Source: Eledone cirrhosa
Lineage: Eukaryota
DNA length: 64,000 nt
Direction: 5' to 3'
Assembly (NCBI GenBank): GCA_964016885.1
Contig: OZ024754.1
Span: 13,454,001-13,518,000, forward strand
The notes beneath the pieces were generated by a model. It searched no databases, was not told the DNA's origin, and saw only the letters and a list, made by a program, of their open reading frames with translations. Both the position numbers and the translations under genes were made by a program. Positions 3,059 to 64,000 of the stretch are shown one piece after another. How positions within the stretch are numbered: position 1 is the first letter of the stretch; each line of letters begins with the position of its first letter.

Positions 3059-3260
3059 TACTACTGTACGTCTGTATACATATATGTATGTACGTATACA
3101 TACTTATATTTAAGTGGCCAAATTTGAATAATTTAGTTGTAGTGATTGGTTTAGCTCTTTGCACTCGAAATTGGTCAGAAAACTTCTATATGTGATAAAC
3201 ATTACATGTACATAAATTGTAGCGCATATCCAAATAGATGTGTGTTTTGAAAACCATAAT

Positions 3261-3325
3261 TATTTTATTATATATATTTCAAGGGCAACCAAGGCAATCT
3301 TGGTGCGCTTTCATCAGATAAAATA
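3261..3325 (-). ncRNA. Type I hammerhead ribozyme (family B)
   Basis: Inverted copy of 3422-3486. Confidence 0.8.
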
Positions 3326-3421
3326 CAAAATTTGTTTTATAAATAGTGACATAACCGTGGAAAAACCGTGGAAAACAACCTTGATGGTTGAAAATTCGCT
3401 GGATAGATAAAACAAATTTTG

Positions 3422-3486
3422 TATTTTATCTGATGAAAGCGCACCAAGATGGTCTTGGTTGCCCTTGAAATATATATAATAAAATA
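3422..3486 (+). ncRNA. Type I hammerhead ribozyme (family B)
   Basis: UAUUUUAU CUGAUGA AAGCGCACCAAGA-UGG-UCUUGGUUGCCCUU GAAA UAUAUA UA AUAAAAUA. Stem I is a perfect 8 bp. Confidence 0.85.
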
Positions 3487-3606
3487 ATTATGGTTTTATA
3501 AATATAGTTTCCATTTATTAATATATTGAATATTTACTCCAGTCTCTATATTAGTTATAAACTTTTAAGTTTGTTGGATTCCCAACAAATTAAATATAAC
3601 TTCTGC

Positions 3607-5220: not shown

Positions 5221-5733
5221 CTCAAAGTTCTCAAAGTGGGCGCTACCGCCCCCTGGGGGCGTTGAGAAGGTCCAGGGGCGGTGGGACGGTAGAGATGATA
5301 TAATAGTATATTAAATATCAAATGATACATATTATATATAAATATAGTAAAATGAAAATAATATAATATTTATTTATACATAGTATATATTATATTATTT
5401 ATTATATATAAATTAACTGTTTCTACTTTAGGCACAAGGCCAGCAATTACCCAGTGCATTACTGGTACTTTATTTTATCGACCCCGTAAGGATGAAAGGC
5501 AAAGTCAACCTCGGCGGGATTTGAACTCAGATCGTAAAGGGACGTAACTATGCTGGAAAGCATGGTGTCTGACCCTCTACCGATACTGCTAATCCACATT
5601 AACGATTTTATTTATTATATATTATTTACAATTTACGTGTAGGCAGGTCTCTCTAGAAATAGGGTTTGGGGTTGCTTAGGGTATTACGAGGCCATGAGGG
5701 AGAACAGTGACCACAAAAGTTTGAGAACCTCTG
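5221..5733. mobile_element. hAT-type MITE with a nested SINE
   Basis: Imperfect TIRs (gttctcaaa / tttgagaacctctg). The 8-bp TSD gtataagt is at 5213-5220 and 5734-5741. Confidence 0.75.
5411..5597 (-). mobile_element. tRNA-derived SINE family 1
   Basis: Matches the ~185-bp consensus seen at 59618-59800. Confidence 0.85.
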
Positions 5734-6154: not shown

Positions 6155-7708
6155 CGTTTTCTTCCAGAGCTCGTCCCTTCCCGAGACTGGAACACAGCTG
6201 ATTTCTTTCAGAGCTCGCCCCTTCCCTAGATTGGAACACAACAGATGTCTTTCAGAGCTCGTCCCTTCTCTAGATTGGAACACAACTGATGTCTTTCAGA
6301 GCTCGTCCCTTCCCTAGATTGGAACACAACAGATGTCTTTCAGAGCTCGCCCCTTCCCTAGATTGGAACACAACAGATGTCTTTCAGAGCTCGCCCCTTC
6401 TCTAGATTGGAACACAACAGATGTCTTTCAGAGCTCGTCCCTTCTCTAGATTGGAACACAACTGATGTCTTTCAGAGCTCGTCCCTTCCCTAGATTGGAA
6501 CACAACAGATGTCTTTCAGAGCTCGCCCCTTCTCTAGATTGGAACACAACAGATGTCTTTCAGAGCTCGTCCCTTCTATAGGTTGGGACACAACTGATTT
6601 CTTTCAGAGCTCGTCCCTTCTATAGGTTGGGACACAACTGATTTCTTTCAGAGCTCGTCCCTTCTCTAGATTGGGACACAACTGATTTCTTTCAGAGCTC
6701 GTCCCTTCCCTAGATTGGAACACAACTGATGTCTTTCAGAGCTCGTCCCTTCTCTAGACTGGAACACAACTGATTTCTTTCAGAGCTCGCCCCTTCTCTA
6801 GACTGGAACACAACTGATTTCTTTCAGAGCTCTTCCCTTCTATAGGTTGGGACACAACTGATTTCTTTCAGAGCTCGTCCCTTCTCTAGATTGGGACACA
6901 ACTGATTTCTTTCAGAGCTCGTCCCTTCTCTAGACTGGAACACAACTGATTTCTTTCAGAGCTCATCCCTTCTCTAGACTGGAACACAACTGATTTCTTT
7001 CAGAGCTCGTCCCTTCTCTAGATTGGGACACAACTGATTTCTTTCAGAGCTCGTCCCTTCTCTAGACTGGAACACAACTGATTTCTTTCAGAGCTCGTCC
7101 CTTCTCTAGACTGGAACACAACTGATTTCTTTCAGAGCTCGCCCCTTCTCTAGACTGGAACACAACTGATTTCTTTCAGAGCTCTTCCCTTCTATAGGTT
7201 GGGACACAACTGATTTCTTTCAGAGCTCGTCCCTTCTCTAGACTGGGACACAACTGATTTCTTTCAGAGCTCGCCCCTTCTCTAGATTGGAACACAACTG
7301 ATGTCTTTCAGAGCTCGTCCCTTCTCTAGATTGGAACACAACTGATGTCTTTCAGAGCTCGTCCCTTCTCTAGATTGGAACACAACTGATTTCTTTCAGA
7401 GCTCGTCCCTTCTCTAGATTGGAACACAACTGATGTCTTTCAGAGCTCGTCCCTTCCCTAGATTGGAACACAACTGATTTCTTTCAGAGCTCGTCCCTTC
7501 CCTAGATTGGGACACAACTGATTTCTTTCAGAGCTCGTCCCTTCCCTAGACTAGAACATAGCTGATTTCTTTCAGAGCTCGTCCCTTCCCTAGACTGAAA
7601 CACAGCTGATTTCTTTCAGAGCTCGTCCCTTCCCTAGACTGGAACACAGCTGATTTCCTCCAGAGCCCATCCCTTCTATAGGTTGGAATACAGCTGATTT
7701 CTTTCAGA
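6155..7708. repeat. 44-bp minisatellite, about 35 copies
   Basis: Unit gagctcgtcccttctctagattggaacacaactgatttctttca. Confidence 0.95.
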
Positions 7709-8019
7709 GAAGGAGAGAAAAAGAATGAGAAAGAGAGAAGAAGAATCAACTCCAATACAGGAGTGGTACTTCATTTATCAACCTCGAAATAAGAAAAGGG
7801 GAAGTGAAGCTCGGTTAGATTTGAATGCAGAGAACTAGAACAAACACCGCAAAACATTCTATCCAATGTTCTAACAATCCAAACAACTCTGCTAATCCGT
7901 GATATACGTATGTAACATCATATGGAAACATTTGTAAGCTACCCTGGCTTTATATGTAGTTCTTTACACCTAATTATTTAGGCTATTGTGTATCTCTTTA
8001 TAGTTACACACAGAGAGGA

Positions 8020-9819: not shown

Positions 9820-9936
<117 letters not shown>

Positions 9937-9987
9937 TAATAAAAACAATGAATTAAAAACAAAGAGACAGTTCCTTATATTAAAAAA

Positions 9988-10128
9988 TTCATCATTTTAC
10001 GATCGTTTCTAGGATATATAAGTGTGTGTTGGTATGTATATCATATAGATCTATGTAAAAAAATGTACAAACTATCAGAGGAAATATACATACCTACACA
10101 TATATATGCTGTCTTCAGAAATAATGAA
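9988..10128 (-). ncRNA. Type I hammerhead ribozyme (family H), ~100-nt stem II
   Basis: UUCAUUAUUU CUGAAGA [long hairpin] GAAA CGAUCG UA AAAUGAUGAA. It lies within the inverted repeat 9931-10309. Confidence 0.7.
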
Positions 10129-10510
10129 GACAGCATATATATGTGTAGGTATGTATATTCCCTCTGATAGTTTGTAAAATTTTTACATAGATCTATATGA
10201 TATACATACCAACACACACATATATATCCTAGAAACGATCGTAAAATGATGAATTTTTTAATATAAGGAACTGTTTCTTTGTTTTTATTCATTGTTTTTA
10301 TTAATTTATCTTGACTCTGTTTTCCAGTGATTTTCATCGAAAAGATTTTCGAATACATCTTCTCTTTTCATGATATTTGGATTACATTGAGTTCTTCATA
10401 CGGATTGGACACTACCGTATATTTTGGTAGATTTATCTACATATATATATATATTATATATATGTATATATATATATATGTATATTTATAATGTATATTT
10501 ATATGCATAT

Positions 10511-13552: not shown

Positions 13553-13964
13553 TCTTCCTCTATATCTCTTTCTCACTTTCTTTCTGTCAATCTCTTTATC
13601 CTTCTCTGGAAAAAAAATTTCTGTATTCAGACCTGGAGAGGAGATGAGCTCCGCCAAGTTTTTTTTTAATGTCCTAGAAATGCCGTATCTCAATACAGCG
13701 CACTTACGACTTCCCCAGAAGTTACGGGACCATCCATTCACCCATTCTTATATCTAGCAACAATAAAGTCGAAGAAATTGCTGTAGATTTGAACCTTAGA
13801 ACAACGAGTAGATAAATTACCGTCTTACACACTCGGTCACTTACGTAGCTTCTCTTACCATAAAGGCGTGAGATAAACTGTATTTATTTGAAGTTTTACT
13901 GATCTAAATCATATGATGTACATTATCTTAATGAAATTATAACTGATTCTACTGTATTATTAAT

Positions 13965-14156
13965 GGCGGTGGATTGGCAGTATCGGTAGAGGATAGGACG
14001 CCATGCTTTTACGCATAGAGTTACGGCCCTTGCCATTCTGAGTTCAAATCTCGCCGAGGTTAACTTTACCTTTCATCCTTACGGGGTCGATAAAATAAAG
14101 TACCAGTAATGTACTGGGTAATTGATGGCCTTGTGCCAAAAGTAGAAACAATTATT
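13965..14156 (+). mobile_element. tRNA-derived SINE family 1
   Basis: Full-length match to the consensus, with attattaat on both flanks. Confidence 0.85.
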
Positions 14157-14569
14157 AATGTACTAATGAAAATTATTTACTCTCCTTAAACTATATTGAC
14201 GATTAATTCTCTGATCTTGCAAATCATTAGCGCTAAATTCATTACACTAGATAAGAAACGATATGAGACAATCGTTTCTCTGATATATTTTTAAGTGCAT
14301 GCATTATTTATTAATGTGTTATTATAGTAAGAGTGGCCCCTGGGAATTCCATGTTTTGTAAACGTTCTATTTTAATGCATAGATTTATCGATCTTCATGC
14401 CAGTATTTCATTGTTAAAAATCTTGATTATATCTTCGATTTCGTTCCATAATTACAGATTACAATTGCTTAAAGCGCAAATATTCAAGCTTGTTTGTTTA
14501 TGCTCAAAGATTTCGATTATGTCTTTGATTTTGTTTTAATGTCAAGTTTATAAAAAAAAGGTAACCAAG

Positions 14570-20009: not shown

Positions 20010-20495
20010 TTAGGGCATTGAGTAGTGGTTGAAATTTATTGATGAAATGTGTTTCCTTATTGGTACGTTGGATGAAAGTAGCGTTGTCTATGAATTTGTA
20101 AATGGGGAAAATTTTAAAGTTTGGATGTTGGCGATATGTTCACTAAATGCAATCTTTCTGTATTCCTGTATTTTAATTTGTGATTTATGGATGGTCATAC
20201 GTTGACGGAGGCTGTTTTTTGTCTGTCCTATGTAATGCTCTTGACAACCTGAGCAGGTCAAAACATAGATAAGGTTTTCAGATGCACATGTAAAGTTGTG
20301 TTTAACTGTGAAACGTTGTCCTTGTTTAAAATGGAATGTTGAACCTTCTATTAGATTTATGTATATGCCACAGTTGGGCCTTCCGTATTTTGTTACTGTA
20401 GGGTTCATTGTGAGGGTTTGTTGGATTTTGGCTTGTGTGAGGATGTTTTTTATGGATTTGGGTTGTCTTTTGCTCTTTATGATGTTGTGAACGCA
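20010..20495 (-). mobile_element. Penelope-like element, GIY-YIG endonuclease fragment
   Basis: NFTCASENLIYVLTCSGCQEHYIGQT..LRQRMTIH..FSEH. A shifted frame continues KETHFINKFQPLLN. The 5' side is cut by SINEs. Confidence 0.9.
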
Positions 20496-20499
20496 AATC

Positions 20500-21033
20500 A
20501 TAAAGGGAGGTAACTCTATGCAGCAAAGCATGGCGTCCGATCCTCTACCGATACTGCCAATCCACCGCCCTGCTCAAGATTAATAATGGTTTCTTATATA
20601 GGCACAAGGCCAGCAATGTTTCTACTTTTGGCACAAGGCCAGCAATTACCCCAGTGTATTACTGGTACTTTATTTTATCGACCGCGTAAGGATGAAAGGC
20701 AAAGCTAACCTCGGCGGGATTTGAACTCAGATCGTAAATGGTCGCAACTCTATGCTGCAAAGCATGGTGTGCGATGCTCTACCGATACTGCCAATCCATC
20801 GCCCTGCTCAAGTTTACTAATGATTCCTTATATAGGCACAAGGCCAGCATATTTTGGGAAGGGGAAGTCGATTAAATCGACCCCAGTGTGTGACTGGTAC
20901 TTTACGTCATCGACTCCGTAAGGATGAAAGGCAAAGCTAATCTCGGCAGGATTTGAACTCAGATGGTAAAGGGGCGTAACTCTATGCTGCAAAGCATGGT
21001 GTCCGATGCTCTACCGATACTGCCAAACCACCG
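20500..21033 (-). mobile_element. Three head-to-tail SINE family 1 copies
   Basis: ctaccgatactgccaa..cc.cc recurs at about 20545, 20777 and 21011. Confidence 0.85.
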
Positions 21034-22375: not shown

Positions 22376-22658
22376 TCGACAAATTTTAGGTCTGTTGGTC
22401 TTCCTCCTAACTAAGCTAATAAAAACTTACTACTACAGTCTAGTGGTTCTCATTTACACTACTTTATATATTGAGTTCTGCTCCTGCCAGAGCCGATCCT
22501 TGTATGATTATCTGTGTTCGTAGCAGGTCAATAAAAGCTAAAGTACTATAACCAATAAAAATCAGAGACTAGTATCGATTTAATTGTCTTTAACACACCC
22601 ATAAAATCGCTATGTGACAGTGTGCCAAGATTTTAAAAAGCTTAATAGTTCTAATAAT

Positions 22659-22839
22659 TGTTTCTACTTTAGGCACAAGGCCAGCAAATAGCCAGTGCAT
22701 TACTGGTACTTTATTTTATCGACCCCGTAAGGATGAAAGGCAAAGTCAACCTCGACGGGATTTGAACTCAGATCATAAAGGGACGTAACTATGCTGGAAA
22801 GCATGGCGTCCGACCCTCTACCGATACTGCCAATCCACC
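22659..22839 (-). mobile_element. SINE family 1 with a 19-bp TSD
   Basis: gcttaatagttctaataat at 22640-22658 and 22840-22858. Confidence 0.9.
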
Positions 22840-23005
22840 GCTTAATAGTTCTAATAATGACTGTATGGTTCAGAATTTCGCTTCCCAACCACGTGGTTTC
22901 GAGTTCAGTCCCACTGTGGGGTACCTTGTTTTTAACAATAGTCTTGCGTTAACTAATCCTTTGTCAGTGAAATTTGGTTGACGGAAACTGTAAGTAAGCC
23001 CGTCG

Positions 23006-24870: not shown

Positions 24871-24949
24871 ATGAAATATATATATTTGTTGAATTACCAA
24901 CAAATTAAATATCCCTCTGCTTATATATATATATATATATTACTTGTTC

Positions 24950-25014
<65 letters not shown>

Positions 25015-25018
<4 letters not shown>

Positions 25019-25204
25019 AACAAGTAAGACCCCGACGGCTGAGCTCAAGCCGTTTCGACGGCTAATTCTGTACGAATTAGCCGTCGAAACGGCTTGAGCT
25101 CAGCCGTCGGGGTCTTACTTGTTCCTATTACCCACTCTACTACCCTAAGTATTGAGTACTTTGGTGCGTTATGGTCCACCTGGTTCCTTACCACATTTCC
25201 TTCG

Positions 25205-25207
<3 letters not shown>
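25015..25207 (+). mobile_element. Family F fold-back element (half-hammerhead palindrome plus tail) in (TA)n
   Basis: Palindrome 25014-25128. Homologous copies at 26883, 42159 and 54096. Confidence 0.85.
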
Positions 25208-25269
<62 letters not shown>

Positions 25270-26126: not shown

Positions 26127-26850
26127 TATATATAATTATATGTATATATATGTATATATATAATTTATATATATAATTATATGTATATATATGTATATAT
26201 ATATGTATATATATATATATATATATTTGTGTGTGTGTGTGGATGTGTGTGTGTGGGGAGGGGGTGTTTGTGGATGTGTGTGTGTGTGTTTATATATATA
26301 TAATAAGTAATGTCAGTAATATTTTTATATCCTGATTGCTTTTACAGTAGCATAGATTTTAAAAGCAACTTGTGGTAATGTGAATTCGTGAATTTATATA
26401 TATCCTCATTATCATCGTCTTTGCGTCCGCTTTTATGTCTGCATGGGTTGGACATGTCCTTCTCAACATGACATCTCTCTCTCTACACGTCCTGATCTTT
26501 TGTAAGTCTCAGAGATTTGAGGTCAGCTCTTACAACCTCTTCCCAGGTTTTTCTTGGTCTATATCGCCTAATCAGCCACTTCTACTGGTCCTTCCTATGC
26601 CGGAAATAGTCTTACATCATTGGTTAACCCCCCCCCCCCGCCCCAGTTACCCCTGTGCATCTTCTACAAACAAAGTCTTCCCGTCCTATTAGCCTACTCT
26701 CGTTGTCCCACTACATCTCTTGTGTACCCAAGATTTACAGTATGTATATCGTAACGAGTTTGTATATATATATATATAGATAGATAGATATATGTGTGTG
26801 TGAGTGTGAGTAAGTGTGTGTGTATATATATATACACACACATACTCACT

Positions 26851-26882
<32 letters not shown>

Positions 26883-26884
<2 letters not shown>

Positions 26885-27073
26885 ACGGAGGAAATGTGGT
26901 AAGGAACCAGGTGGACCATAATGCACCAAAGTACTCAATACTTAGGGTAGTAGAGTGGGTAATAGGAACGAGTAGGACCCCGACGGCTGAGCTCAAGCCG
27001 TTTCGACGGCTAATTCTGGACTAGAATTAGCCGTCGAAACGGCTTGAGCTCAGCCGTCGGGGTCCTACTCGTT

Positions 27074-27077
<4 letters not shown>
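26883..27077 (-). mobile_element. Family F fold-back element in (TA)n
   Basis: Reverse-complement homolog of 25015-25207. Confidence 0.85.
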
Positions 27078-27108
<31 letters not shown>

Positions 27109-27208
27109 TACACACAAATCCGTTGTATATATCCTTATAAACATTTTCATTCTGGTACACCTATACACGCATATTCCTTGTTCTATATCCTTACTTATAT
27201 ATTCATTG

Positions 27209-27392
27209 GTGGATTGGCAGTATCGATAGAGGGTCGGACGCCATGCTTTGAAGCATAGAGTTACCTCCCTTTATTATCTGAGTTCAAATCCAGCCGAGGT
27301 TAACTTTGCCTTTCATTCTTACGGGGTCGATAAAATAAAGTACTAATAATACACTGGGATAATTGCTGGCCTTGTGCCAAAAGTAGAAACAA
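27209..27392 (+). mobile_element. SINE family 1 with an 18-bp TSD
   Basis: ttacttatatattcattg at 27191-27208 and 27393-27410. Confidence 0.9.
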
Positions 27393-58830: not shown

Positions 58831-59617
58831 TGGATAAGTGAGTGAGTGAGTGAGGAAGTGAGTGAGTGAAGGAATGAATGAATGAATGTATGAGTGGGTG
58901 GGTGAATGAGTGTAGTGGGTGAAGGGGGGAGAGTTAGGGAGTGAGGGAATATATAAGTGAGTGACGGTAAACATTTCCGACTAAGAACCCTTCAGGACTT
59001 CTAACGAAATCAGACTCAGCGATCATAACCACACTAACGTATATAGATATATTTATTAGAAAATTTATATCATTTGATTTCTAATTTAGATATGACCGGG
59101 GTACGGGCAATGTTGATTGAAAGATATTTTATTTTTATCGATTCATCCTTCAGGGGTCGATAAAAAAAAATACTAGTTAAATACTGCTTTTTTTCCCACC
59201 CCAAAGTTCTGGCATTGAATCAATTTTATAAAGAATGATTTGTGTTATTTACAAATTGATATTTAAACATCATTTGAATTGGTTATTATATGTTAATGTA
59301 ATTCAAATCTATTCTCAACATGGAAATGAGAGTGAGACACTGCCACCCCCACCCCCACACCCCCGCCACCACCAAAACCACCATCACCACCACCACCACA
59401 ACAACAACAACAATCACTACTACTACTATCACCGCCTCCACCGCTGCCACCACCACCGCCACCACCACCACACCACCACCCATCATTATCACCGCCCAGC
59501 AAGGACACCAGATTTGTAACTGTGTTATAATTACTAATATTGTTGTTGCTGTTTAGCCAGAGGTCAGAGATGATCAAAGCGTTGAAGATATGATCATCCC
59601 ATATTATTTTCAGACTA

Positions 59618-59800
59618 GCGGTGGATTGGCAGTATCGGTAGAGGGTCGGACGCCATGCTTTCCAGCATAGTTACGTCCCTTTACGATCTGAGTTCAAATC
59701 CCGCCGAGGTTGACTTTTCCTTTCATTTTTACGGGGTCGATAAAATAAAGTACCAGTAATGCACTGGGTAATTGCTGGCCTTGTGCCTAAAGTAGAAACA
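59618..59800 (+). mobile_element. SINE family 1, full length, 15-bp TSD
   Basis: attattttcagacta at 59603-59617 and 59801-59815. A box tggcagtatcggtag, B box gagttcaaatccc. Confidence 0.92.
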
Positions 59801-60089
59801 ATTATTTTCAGACTATGTATCCTGATCTATATTATCGATTGTGATTTTCATTTTTTCTATCTATCTATTTATCTATATGTATGTATATATATATATATAT
59901 ATATATACAATACATGAACAGAGAAAGCCTTAAGCGATACTCTGACCAACTCCATCTCACTCAACAAACATAAGGATATACTTAAGTATTTTCCCAATTT
60001 AGTGTTTGGGGTGCTAACTAATCAGTATTGTGTGGATAGCTAGTTGTATTATTTTATATGAGATATTATTAAATAAATATCTCATTTCT

Positions 60090-60707: not shown

Positions 60708-61853
60708 ATAATCTATAAAGCTCAGTGTGTGGTCATGCTCCTTTCTTATAGAAATCTACGATATAGAATTTCTTCAATTGAAATTTACAATTCAGTATTC
60801 GAAATAGCTTCGATTGCGTCTTGGCACAGATAATTTTTTCAATTTCACCCACAATTACGCAAAAAATAGATAAAACTCAATATTTTACGATTTTTCTCTG
60901 TCATTTAAACTGCTAAACTCTTTCCACTACCATTCAAAATCTATACAACTTCATACTTTCTGCTACTTTCACTTTCCAAGCTTGATGGTGATACTGTCCG
61001 TTTTACTCTCTCATATCATCTGTTTTTCCTCTAACTACAACCTACACATTTTGCTACTTTCTCTTTTATACAGATACATTTATTCAACAACAAGCGATAA
61101 ATCTTTTTTAAAACCTCTTTTCCAAACGCATACAAACACACACTCACTTCAACAACAACAACAACAATCTGCCTTTTATAGATAATGATAAACAATAATA
61201 TCCTCTATGAGGTCACTAAACCTGCTAGAAACAGCAGCTAACTCTCCCCCATATCACACCCCTCCCTAATGTCTTAAATTTAGAAAACATATCTTCTATG
61301 AGGTCACTAAACCTGCTAGAAACAGCAGTTAACTCTCCCCCATAACACACCACTCCCTACTGTCTTAAATTTAGAAAACACATATCCTCTATGAGGTTAC
61401 TAAACCTGCTAGAAGCAGCAGCTAACTCTCCCCTATATTACACACTCCCTACTGTCTTAAATTTAGAAAACACATATCCTCTATGAGGTCACTAAACCTG
61501 CTAGAAACAACAGCTAACTCTCCCTCATATCACAACCCTCCCTACTGTCTTAAATTTAGAAAACACACAGACAACCATGCAGAACAACTCCATCGCAGCT
61601 CTGTTGTTCGGCTGGCATCGTCTACGCGCGTGTTGCGCAAGTACTGTGAAACAATAAATTTCAACACTTTTTTGCACAGAGATAATATCCATAGGCAAAA
61701 CTACAATTGTCACTGCTGGCGCAGCTCCTGCTTCCAGGTCTGCAATTCATTCACCCAGTGCCTGGCAGACAAAAAAGTGCTGCCATAAAATGGGTGGTGC
61801 AACCTAACTTTGGTAACATAATGACCCCGAGCAACGCCGGGCTTTAATGCTAG
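60708..61853 (+). mobile_element. Probable non-autonomous Helitron
   Basis: 3' hairpin cccgagcaacgccggg followed by CTAG-t. Putative 5' a-tctataaagc start. The extent is inferred. Confidence 0.5.
61200..61566. repeat. ~92-bp tandem repeat, 4 copies
   Basis: ctatgagg at 61205, 61296, 61389 and 61481. Confidence 0.9.
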
Positions 61854-62541: not shown

Positions 62542-63177
62542 TATCTAATAAAAGGGGTTAAGGATGAGGTTTGGGAGGAATTTAGGTGCTGTTTCTAGCA
62601 GTTTTAGCGCCTGTGTAGAGGTTTCCTTCGCTGATATTTCTGTAAATTTCTGAATCGACCATTGTAGTAATAAACAGAGACTTCCGGTGTGGTGAGATCG
62701 TCAACGAACTCAGCGTTAAACAGATGAAAAGATGTTCACTTCATTTCATCCATTGATTCGTTTACGTATATTTTACACATCCTATCTCAATACCACTCCA
62801 CTAAACTCCTTGATAAACAATCGTGGCTTTCAATGCTGTTCAAGACAATTTGAATGAGATAGTAAAAATCATTGTCAGCAACTATTTCAGAAAGATGTGC
62901 TATGTGTACTTTAATGTTCGGTTTATTTCGTGAGATATATAGGGAGCAAACATCAACACCATCTTGATAATATTTTACTATGTCATAAATAGAGGAATGG
63001 AGTCAACAGATAGAAGGTTTATTGATCGAGATTGTCTGCAAGGAGTTTTGGCACATTATCTCCATTTCTTTATCTATCTGTCATTTTTTTCCTTCTCAAT
63101 ATATAATCATATGTTTGCGTTTTATCTGTCCGTATGTGAATACTTATACATACATATATGCAAAATATATATGATAA

Positions 63178-63733: not shown

Positions 63734-63758
63734 ATATATATATATTTATTGTATAGAA

Positions 63759-63811
63759 GAGCTTCTACAGGACTAGTACTGTTTCATTCAGATGAAATCT
63801 TCAGGAAGCTC
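63759..63811 (-). ncRNA. Type I hammerhead ribozyme (family A)
   Basis: Inverted copy of 63871-63923. Confidence 0.85.
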
Positions 63812-63870
63812 TGTATTCAGAAATTTACAGAAATATCAGCGAAGGAAACCTCTACACAGGCGCTAAAAAG

Positions 63871-63923
63871 GAGCTTCCTGAAGATTTCATCTGAATGAAA
63901 CAGTACTAGTCCTGTAGAAGCTC
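63871..63923 (+). ncRNA. Type I hammerhead ribozyme (family A)
   Basis: GAGCUUC CUGAAGA UUUCA-UC-UGAAU GAAA CAG-UACUAGUC-CUG UA GAAGCUC. Stem I is 7 bp. Confidence 0.88.
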
Positions 63924-64000
63924 CTTCTATACAATAAATATATTTTACTCTGCCATGTATTGAGTACCTTACTTACTGTGGTTATCCCCGACTCAACTCG

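Follow-up and report, generated by a model that had tools for sequence, protein, structure and literature searches.

Fold-back repeats of probable Penelope-like origin whose junctions look insertion-specific and fit the joining of two primed cDNAs

The analysed window, i.e., the whole 64-kb stretch of DNA, is AT-rich and microsatellite-rich animal sequence. It contains four copies of a repeat of about 190 bases, here called family F, and blastn searches with each copy against the window yielded no fifth one. The copies share 84–95% identity over their full length (blastn) and are located at positions 25014–25207 (c1, forward strand), 26883–27078 (c2, reverse strand), 42159–42341 (c3, reverse strand), and 54094–54281 (c4, forward strand). 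The original prediction of four fold-back copies, each consisting of a short inverted arm, a hairpin, and a long arm, was thus borne out with corrections. Read in a common orientation, the copies consist of a (TA)n stretch, an inverted arm of 52–56 nt, a loop of 3–7 nt, the same sequence in forward direction, a 79-nt tail, and again (TA)n, whereby all four carry the head-to-head inverted, 5′-truncated copy and all four have the tail on one side only. A/T runs of 10–78 nt are present on all eight flanks, so that any target-site duplication would be masked by the (TA)n. The termini are not inverted repeats of each other, since the repeated part comprises one end and an inner stretch, and the tail end is unique.

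In c1, the tail-less short arm of 55 nt (25014–25068, reverse strand) meets the (TA)n with its outer end ...TTCCTAT and is followed by the junction loop (25069–25073), the mirrored part of the long arm (25074–25128, forward strand), which gives 55-nt perfect arms in blastn, and the tail (25129–25207, forward strand). A further arm-end piece of 13 nt (24940–24952, forward strand) lies as a mirror image across the left (TA)n of c1. The reverse-strand copy c2 comprises the tail (26883–26961), the long arm (26962–27017), a loop (27018–27022) that equals the family upstream sequence, and the short arm (27023–27078). The corresponding parts of c3 are located at 42159–42237, 42238–42286, 42287–42292, and 42293–42341, respectively, whereas c4 runs in the opposite direction from the short arm (54094–54149) via the loop (54150–54152) to the long arm, which starts at 54153 and is followed by the tail. 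The outer end of the short arm is identical at ...TTCCTAT in three of the four copies, and c4 ends at the same position. The loops differ in all four copies, as had been claimed, including c1 and c3, the arms of which differ by one site only. A comparison with c2 and with the loose ends of public reads showed that the first two letters of the c1 loop are an antisense continuation of the family upstream sequence which the long arm lacks. In c3, the 6-nt loop belongs to the short arm and is absent from the long arm; in the common orientation it reads TAATTC on the short-arm side. Apart from this, the c3 arms show one asymmetric C>T exchange. The long arm of c4 has a 6-nt gap, and these six nucleotides are retained in its short arm. 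As to which arm holds extra letters at the junction, c2 and c4 are the reverse of c1 and c3, so that either arm can reach further 5′ at the variable central junctions.

The long arm contains, in the order that had been described, GCCGTC, GAAA, CGGCT-TGAGCTC-AGCCG, TC, and GGGGTC. In c1 this corresponds to a hammerhead-like 3′ half at 25086–25114 (forward strand) with GAAA, a stem III with a palindromic GAGCTC loop, GUC, and a candidate 3′ strand of stem I, for which the 5′ core was not found. When the long arm was shuffled 20,000 times with its dinucleotides retained, 40 of the resulting strings contained the pattern of GAAA, a 6-bp stem, and UH. This pattern has the same spacing as the real hammerhead of a second family, family H, whose complete hammerheads are located at 2182, 43152, 44249, 63804, and 63878. 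One member of family H that carries a complete hammerhead plus the tail spans 43022–43178 (reverse strand), with a tail-less partner arm at 44223–44308, and another forms a palindrome at 63746–64000, in which both arms are core-intact and a 59-nt spacer is continuous with an RT-like fragment. An exact 11-mer (25149–25159 in c1) is common to the tails of both families and lies 40 nt after the UH triplet in F and 37–40 nt after it in H; such sharing was obtained in 21 of 3,000 shuffles and at a like offset in 4 of 3,000. Whole-region alignments of F and H are weak, their scores being reached by 98, 671, and 7 of 2,000 shuffles. According to the accessible text of PMC4209133, PLE (Penelope-like element) hammerheads carry a palindromic hexamer in loop III. 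Thus, a hammerhead 3′ half in F is plausible in view of its rarity in shuffles, the palindromic hexamer, and the 11-mer shared with the family H tail. The stretches around the 11-mer are 25145–25162 in F as well as 43063–43080, 2254–2271, and 63957–63967 in H, and in c1 and in the family H copy with the hammerhead at 43152 the 11-mer forms a hairpin of 6 bp around a UGA loop, which is a candidate signal for protein binding or RT start.

The claim of a GUC hammerhead half therefore stood as far as the pattern exceeds chance, but the core and the partner strands of stems I and II were not found. The CUGANGA core is absent from all four F copies, and GACCCC and GACGGC occur in them as mirror sequence only. 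Judged from its letters, the F half-hammerhead as it stands is not a ribozyme, since it lacks the core as well as either partner strand, and no Rfam model matched 25060–25210 with E ≤ 10. In the reading favoured below, it would be a passenger. Over the entire window, Rfam reported one weak tRNA at the gathering threshold; in addition, the 150 considered of 392 matches were to miRNA, snoRNA, and similar models on hairpins and simple repeats. Monomer folds of the F arms and tail showed no excess of stability over shuffles (z from −0.8 to +0.5). Readings of F as twister, HDV-like, type II hammerhead, or tRNA-like structure were rejected by eye. Exact F patterns gave no match in viral, metagenome, and prokaryotic genome collections, as expected of an animal repeat.

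Four of 20 matching public runs (16 holders, 11 studies listed) were placed on 25045–25206. These comprised X18 with 23,616 raw reads from a reduced-representation library and X1 with 17,896 contigs, both from the best-matching organism, as well as X5 with 42 contigs from a second and X7 with 2 contigs from a third organism. None of the listed holders was an RNA data set, which carries no weight with regard to expression. Family F thus comprises at least thousands of variants. When the arms are compared over the initial 41 nt that they have in common, those of c1, c2, c3, and c4 differ at 0, 0, 1, and 0 sites, respectively, compared to 1–4 differences between copies, so that the arms cluster by locus, as had been expected. 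The variants that had been called private are indeed shared by both arms of each copy. However, they are not private, since they occur in 16–36% of the X18 reads: at 25115, A was found in 3,854 (29%) and C in 4,722 (36%) of 13,212 reads, at 25120, C in 4,347 (33%) and G in 2,069 (16%) of 13,242 reads, and at 25102, T in 4,875 of 14,955 reads (33%). As these variants are common in the family, the symmetry of the arms shows only that both arms derive from a single source haplotype. The reads also revealed a sharp second 3′ end at 25128, behind which TA follows in 3,853 reads of X18 as well as in 107 and 3 contigs of X1 and X5, respectively. This is the position where the F short arms end, so that the family has two sharp 3′ ends 79 nt apart. 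Likewise, the tail-less arms of families F, I, C, H1, H2, and G meet (TA)n where the long arm continues into the tail.

Thousands of reads carry non-mirror sequence 5′ of the long arm. It precedes 25074 in 2,460 reads, whose consensus ends in TTTAGTCCA, and 25078 in 1,748 reads, whose consensus ends in TTAGTTCGGATC. The loop of c2 matches the first of these types, so that the loops are remnants of upstream sequence. Aligned without gaps, the upstream strings of X5 and X18 are identical at 17 of 30 positions by eye (P = 6e-4), so that there is a longer F parent. Some F copies extend at least 30 nt further upstream in the reads, and the clustered 5′ limit is thus not an absolute template end. 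In both upstream types, a possible 4-bp CTAA/TTAG stem with a 10-nt loop ends at the clustered 5′ limits; by eye, it could be an RT stop. Three readings of the upstream region were rejected: an ORF end at TAG, because the differences lack a third-position bias and chance alone would leave ten codons open; remains of a core in the second of the two upstream types, where 3 of 6 fixed positions agree, which is chance level; and a 5′ limit fixed at the GTC that directly precedes the long arm, past which c2 extends.

The original prediction had assumed that CUGANGA of an intact hammerhead parent was replaced by the mirror at each insertion. Such a replacement was not observed: a GACCCC-CTGANGA-GACGGC parent was found neither in the 64-kb window nor among 17 of the 348 loose-end rows, and the 38–42 nt visible before GAAA in the loose ends contain neither CTGANGA nor GACGGC. 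At 25057, where reads of such a parent should leave the mirror, the depth of X18 does not change (56 reads for 25051–25056 and 55 for 25057–25062, about 111 reads from few loci), so that no read leaves the mirror at the supposed base of stem II. The read evidence on the parent comprises 30 letters per loose end, carries a restriction-site bias, and comes from short-read libraries, which likely lose hairpin molecules. A core further upstream would be possible, as the two core halves of other hammerheads in the window lie up to 52 nt apart.

At least 32 distinct joints occur in the reads (15 of 32 listed). For a closer analysis we used the ten junctions that leave from 25070 towards a downstream position, taken from 12 of 31 rows, whereby 25070–25054 and 25074–25162 were dropped. 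In nine of these ten junctions the filler letters fit the antisense continuation seen in c2. In seven of them the forward arm starts inside the tail, beyond 25128, so that the arms do not overlap at all. The short side of the joints considered has 21–26 letters only, and the single X18 example represents 54 reads with one start. Eight junctions allowed microhomology to be measured, yielding 3, 3, 2, 4, 2, 3, 1, and 3 nt, a mean of 2.6 compared to 0.60 under the null (P = 5e-6, a value that is overstated because the best-supported rows favour microhomology). Joints in which the inverted arm is shortened were seen as well (25074–25117, 25074–25122, and 25078–25122). One loop class with an inserted A behind 25073 recurs in 24 X1 contigs and in 31 of 130 X18 reads. 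Folding of the growing cDNA strand with DNA parameters predicted an unpaired 3′ end at 27014–27023 (P at most 0.19, 37°C), where the real junctions lie, and a paired 3′ end at 26999–27001 (P 0.86–1.0) and at 27011 (P 0.73–0.81), i.e., at two inner hairpins used by none of the four copies. Overall, the F junctions do look insertion-specific. Regarding the proposal that each palindrome formed at its own insertion by a snap-back on stem II, the variation between insertions was thus supported by the four differing loops and the at least 32 joints, but the snap-back was not.

In a masked self-comparison of the window, 21 local inverted matches were detected, including the four F copies. Nine further palindromes with a hammerhead core are likewise arranged head to head (2560–2963, 3250–3497, 9934–10306, 28669–28941, 31319–31800, 37492–37674, 44602–44762, 63746–63937, and 43035–44308). 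Six of the nine have the core in both arms, share 38, 23, 80, 10, 7, and 26 nt upstream of it, and contain spacers from 3 to 1,044 nt. The other three have the core in one arm only, the second arm of two of them beginning in stem II. In the element at 9934–10306, the tail-less arm carries the stem I strand and the full core, and the tailed arm starts one base into the core. The suggestion that ribozyme structure explains the inverted termini of PLEs fails on the six palindromes with the core in both arms, which are joined 7–80 nt upstream of it. The breakpoints of the nine comparison palindromes lie near the ribozyme but not on one helix, and their closeness to the ribozyme follows from the shortness of the insertions.

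Remnants of retroelement coding sequence are present in the window, all on the reverse strand. A PLE-like fragment with RT, thumb, zinc finger, and YIG parts spans 51806–52825 and is followed by a hammerhead-like motif at 51369; a PDB sequence search with this fragment gave no match. A GIY-YIG fragment is located at 20091–20573 (E = 4e-5), a broken RT-like piece at 62590–63080, the end of which recurs in the family H palindrome spacer at 63815–63868, and an RVT_1 fragment at 2–553. Among the 52 scanned of 72 unmasked frames of at least 70 amino acids, no F-linked ORF was identified, and the PLE-type fragments at 51806–52825 and 20091–20573 are not linked to F.

The junction data argue against a snap-back on a ribozyme helix and fit two primed cDNAs. 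F is very probably a PLE-type insertion, whereby PLE membership is read from the anatomy and a modest tail likeness, since neither an F-linked ORF nor a full parent was found. For the mode of insertion, we suggest that an F copy is the 5′-truncated end of a PLE in (TA)n, in which two cDNAs from both nicked strands were joined head to head, and we give this reading a probability of about 50%. A PLE protein with RT and GIY-YIG activities, supplied in trans, would cut both (TA)n strands. Priming would take place from one nicked end where the tail terminates, and from the other at an inner site that is fixed, ends in ...UAU, and could pair with the target. Both cDNAs would usually stop about 0–10 nt upstream of GAATTA, at the template end or a strong stop, and their 3′ ends would anneal by a few bases and be filled in. 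If the tail-primed cDNA stopped early, non-overlapping arms would result, as in L1 twin priming, and if both cDNAs came from the same RNA or source locus, the arms would share variants. A PLE protein has been reported to cleave, in purified form, both strands of AT-rich DNA and to extend them, its RT starting at two adjacent RNA sites bracketing the tail without hammerhead cleavage being needed; the main text of that work does not discuss inverted copies and draws no link to the inverted pLTR (PMC11167929). The fixed inner end, the PLE-unit anatomy, the microhomology, the fact that either arm can be the longer one, and the PLE-type remnants in the window support the joining of two cDNAs. Against it, a deletion of the hairpin tip after insertion would also yield asymmetric junctions with microhomology, arms that overlap fully in each of the four window copies would require strand displacement or two RNAs, and the clustering of the 5′ ends is not explained by the model.

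In an alternative, one strand, either cDNA or antisense RNA, folds back and primes itself close to the template's 5′ end, which yields a longer palindrome, and later hairpin-tip deletions trim the centre to different loops. It would account directly for the symmetry of the arms, perfect 55-bp palindromes are unstable, and some window elements have self-complementary centres (the 37578–37586 region and 54327–54543). Self-priming has also been proposed already for PLE inverted junctions, as the Discussion of PMC3846280 states. However, if a lone cDNA was primed at the tail and then snapped back, the short arm must sit within the long arm, so that a second process is needed for c1, c3, the element at 9934–10306, and the seven tail-starting junctions. 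Self-priming does not by itself explain why copying back stops at one fixed site beside (TA)n, and the strongest predicted fold-back sites of the cDNA remain unused in all four copies. We therefore regard it as rather unlikely, but as an explanation that deserves to be taken seriously. The more specific version, in which the snap-back of the cDNA uses the stem II (GACGGC...GCCGTC) that an intact hammerhead would provide and the mirror takes the place of CUGANGA at each insertion, appears very improbable to us. It would be in line with the above-chance 3′ half with its family H-like spacing, with F centres that lie just 5′ of GAAA, with the long stem II regions of other window hammerheads, which leave room for a core further upstream, and with the two of nine comparison elements in which one arm starts in stem II. 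Yet the predicted parent is missing from the window and the 17 loose-end rows, the depth at 25057 does not drop, the visible upstream letters lack both motifs, and six of the nine comparison palindromes keep the core in both arms. Furthermore, the arms of c1, c3, and the element at 9934–10306 are asymmetric in the forbidden direction, the short arm holding letters that the long arm lacks, and the tail-starting junctions as well as the predicted unpaired 3′ end at the junctions do not agree with this version either. The apparent stem II is the mirror itself, since any palindrome centre resembles a stem.

It might also be that a few palindromic masters are transcribed and re-inserted in full, that conversion or template switching keeps their arms alike, and that the loops mark the masters rather than the insertions. 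The variants shared by the arms are common family polymorphisms, four subfamily masters would give the same picture, and the recurring loop class with the inserted A is what such masters would produce. This stands against the at least 32 distinct joints and the 348 loose-end rows, the four differing loops including those of c1 and c3, and the non-palindromic upstream sequence that is common in the reads, so that we consider masters improbable. An origin of F from a non-PLE element, such as a MITE-like, rolling-hairpin, or other DNA element, would agree with the missing Rfam match, linked ORF, and hammerhead core, but the ends are not mutual inverted repeats, the tail is one-sided, and the shape shared with the nine hammerhead-bearing palindromes fits PLEs; we see hardly any chance for it.

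In shape, the F copies are likely for the most part ordinary PLE insertions of a known kind. The available text of PMC8557442 describes the EN+ PLE unit with an adjacent inverted, 5′-truncated copy, a tail at one end, and a (TA)n target, and F resembles this unit, as found in the (TA)n-targeting Neptune, Hydra, and Naiad types, in its head-to-head copy, one-sided tail, (TA)n, and heavy 5′ truncation (PMC8557442 and PMC3846280, as far as accessible). However, the F tail has 79 nt compared to the 30–40 nt given for EN+ PLEs in the available descriptions, no ORF, full parent, or complete hammerhead was found for F, and its 5′ ends are tightly clustered. The hammerhead of the PLE pLTR is absent in Naiads and is thus not universal. 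With type I PLE hammerheads F shares GAAA, a stem III with palindromic loop, and NUH shortly before the tail (available parts of PMC4209133 and of File S2 of PMC8557442), whereas neither CUGANGA nor a partner for stem I nor an independent one for stem II was found in F. Moreover, with 5 bp plus A-U, stem III of F exceeds that of the PLE motifs listed in the accessible material, and its strand can also pair with the upstream GCCGT. Close opposite-strand hammerhead pairs have been noted in Schistosoma in the accessible part of PMC4209133. Like the non-LTR retrozymes of 10.64898/2026.07.22.740005, F is short, non-coding, PLE-related, and hammerhead-associated, but retrozymes, as portrayed in the available part of that source, form head-to-tail tandems with a full hammerhead per unit, whereas F is solitary and head to head. 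MITE/TIR elements carry inverted repeats at both termini, unlike F with its unique tail end.

Twin priming of L1 reportedly goes back to Ostertag and Kazazian in 2001. F resembles it in the 5′ inversion, the microhomology at the inversion junction, and the internal deletions and duplications. The available portions of 10.1101/2024.08.27.596794 and PMC11702581 describe for L1 internal deletions or duplications and cDNA ends joined by microcomplementarity, the duplications being typically short with a median of 22 bp. In these portions the second L1 primer lies at chance internal sites and overlaps are short, whereas F has a fixed inner site and a full 55-nt overlap in each of its four copies in the window. 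Within a partial coverage of the literature, we found no study that extends twin priming to PLEs or reports family F, and unseen repeat libraries may contain F. The F motifs are absent from the supplement of PMC8557442, where line breaks in the FASTA file could hide a match, and from the available supplementary files of PMC13282606. In one octopus genome, Penelope-like elements make up 6.83%, as given in the available part of PMC13282606.

The inverted copy, the one-sided tail, and the (TA)n targeting have already been described in the accessible text of PMC8557442, which names the complex tandem and inverted structures and the microsatellite bias of PLEs as unexplained. The junction evidence is the part worth keeping. 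If the joining of two primed cDNAs is the right reading, it would tie the in vitro result of two cut strands and two start sites (PMC11167929) to the inverted pLTR, a high-copy family such as F with two fixed 3′ ends would allow a direct genomic test of how inverted arms form, and such genomes would gain many perfect 55-bp hairpins as an integration by-product. As a tentative generalisation, PLEs might integrate by programmed twin priming, in which the two nicked (TA)n strands prime on one RNA, the first where the tail terminates and the second at an inner UAU site that is fixed, and the cDNAs are joined by microhomology. With its thousands of copies and clustered 5′ ends, F would serve as a test bed, and it may be a PLE derivative that is still spreading after the loss of its hammerhead core. 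In that case, a single mechanism would lead to the inverted pLTR, the one-sided tail, and the variants shared by the arms.

Among the other repeats of the window, a SINE-like repeat of about 190 bp is present in about 11 full or partial copies (5410–5597, 13958–14162, 20617–20802, 22652–22847, 27200–27406, 59617–59808, and others). Tandem arrays consist of 35 copies of 44 bp (6158–7709) and of 4 copies of 92 bp (61198–61567). About 10 nt from the tail of c4 lies a palindrome (54290–54543) that has a tail on one side but lacks a clear core. Over 15 nt of this palindrome, 14 positions agree by eye with the upstream loose end of X5, which may be due to chance. Finally, several pieces are mirrored across (TA)n or (CA)n/(TG)n (24940–24952, 30232–30309, 44750–44821, and 26789–26868), as if the microsatellite were the centre of a fold-back.
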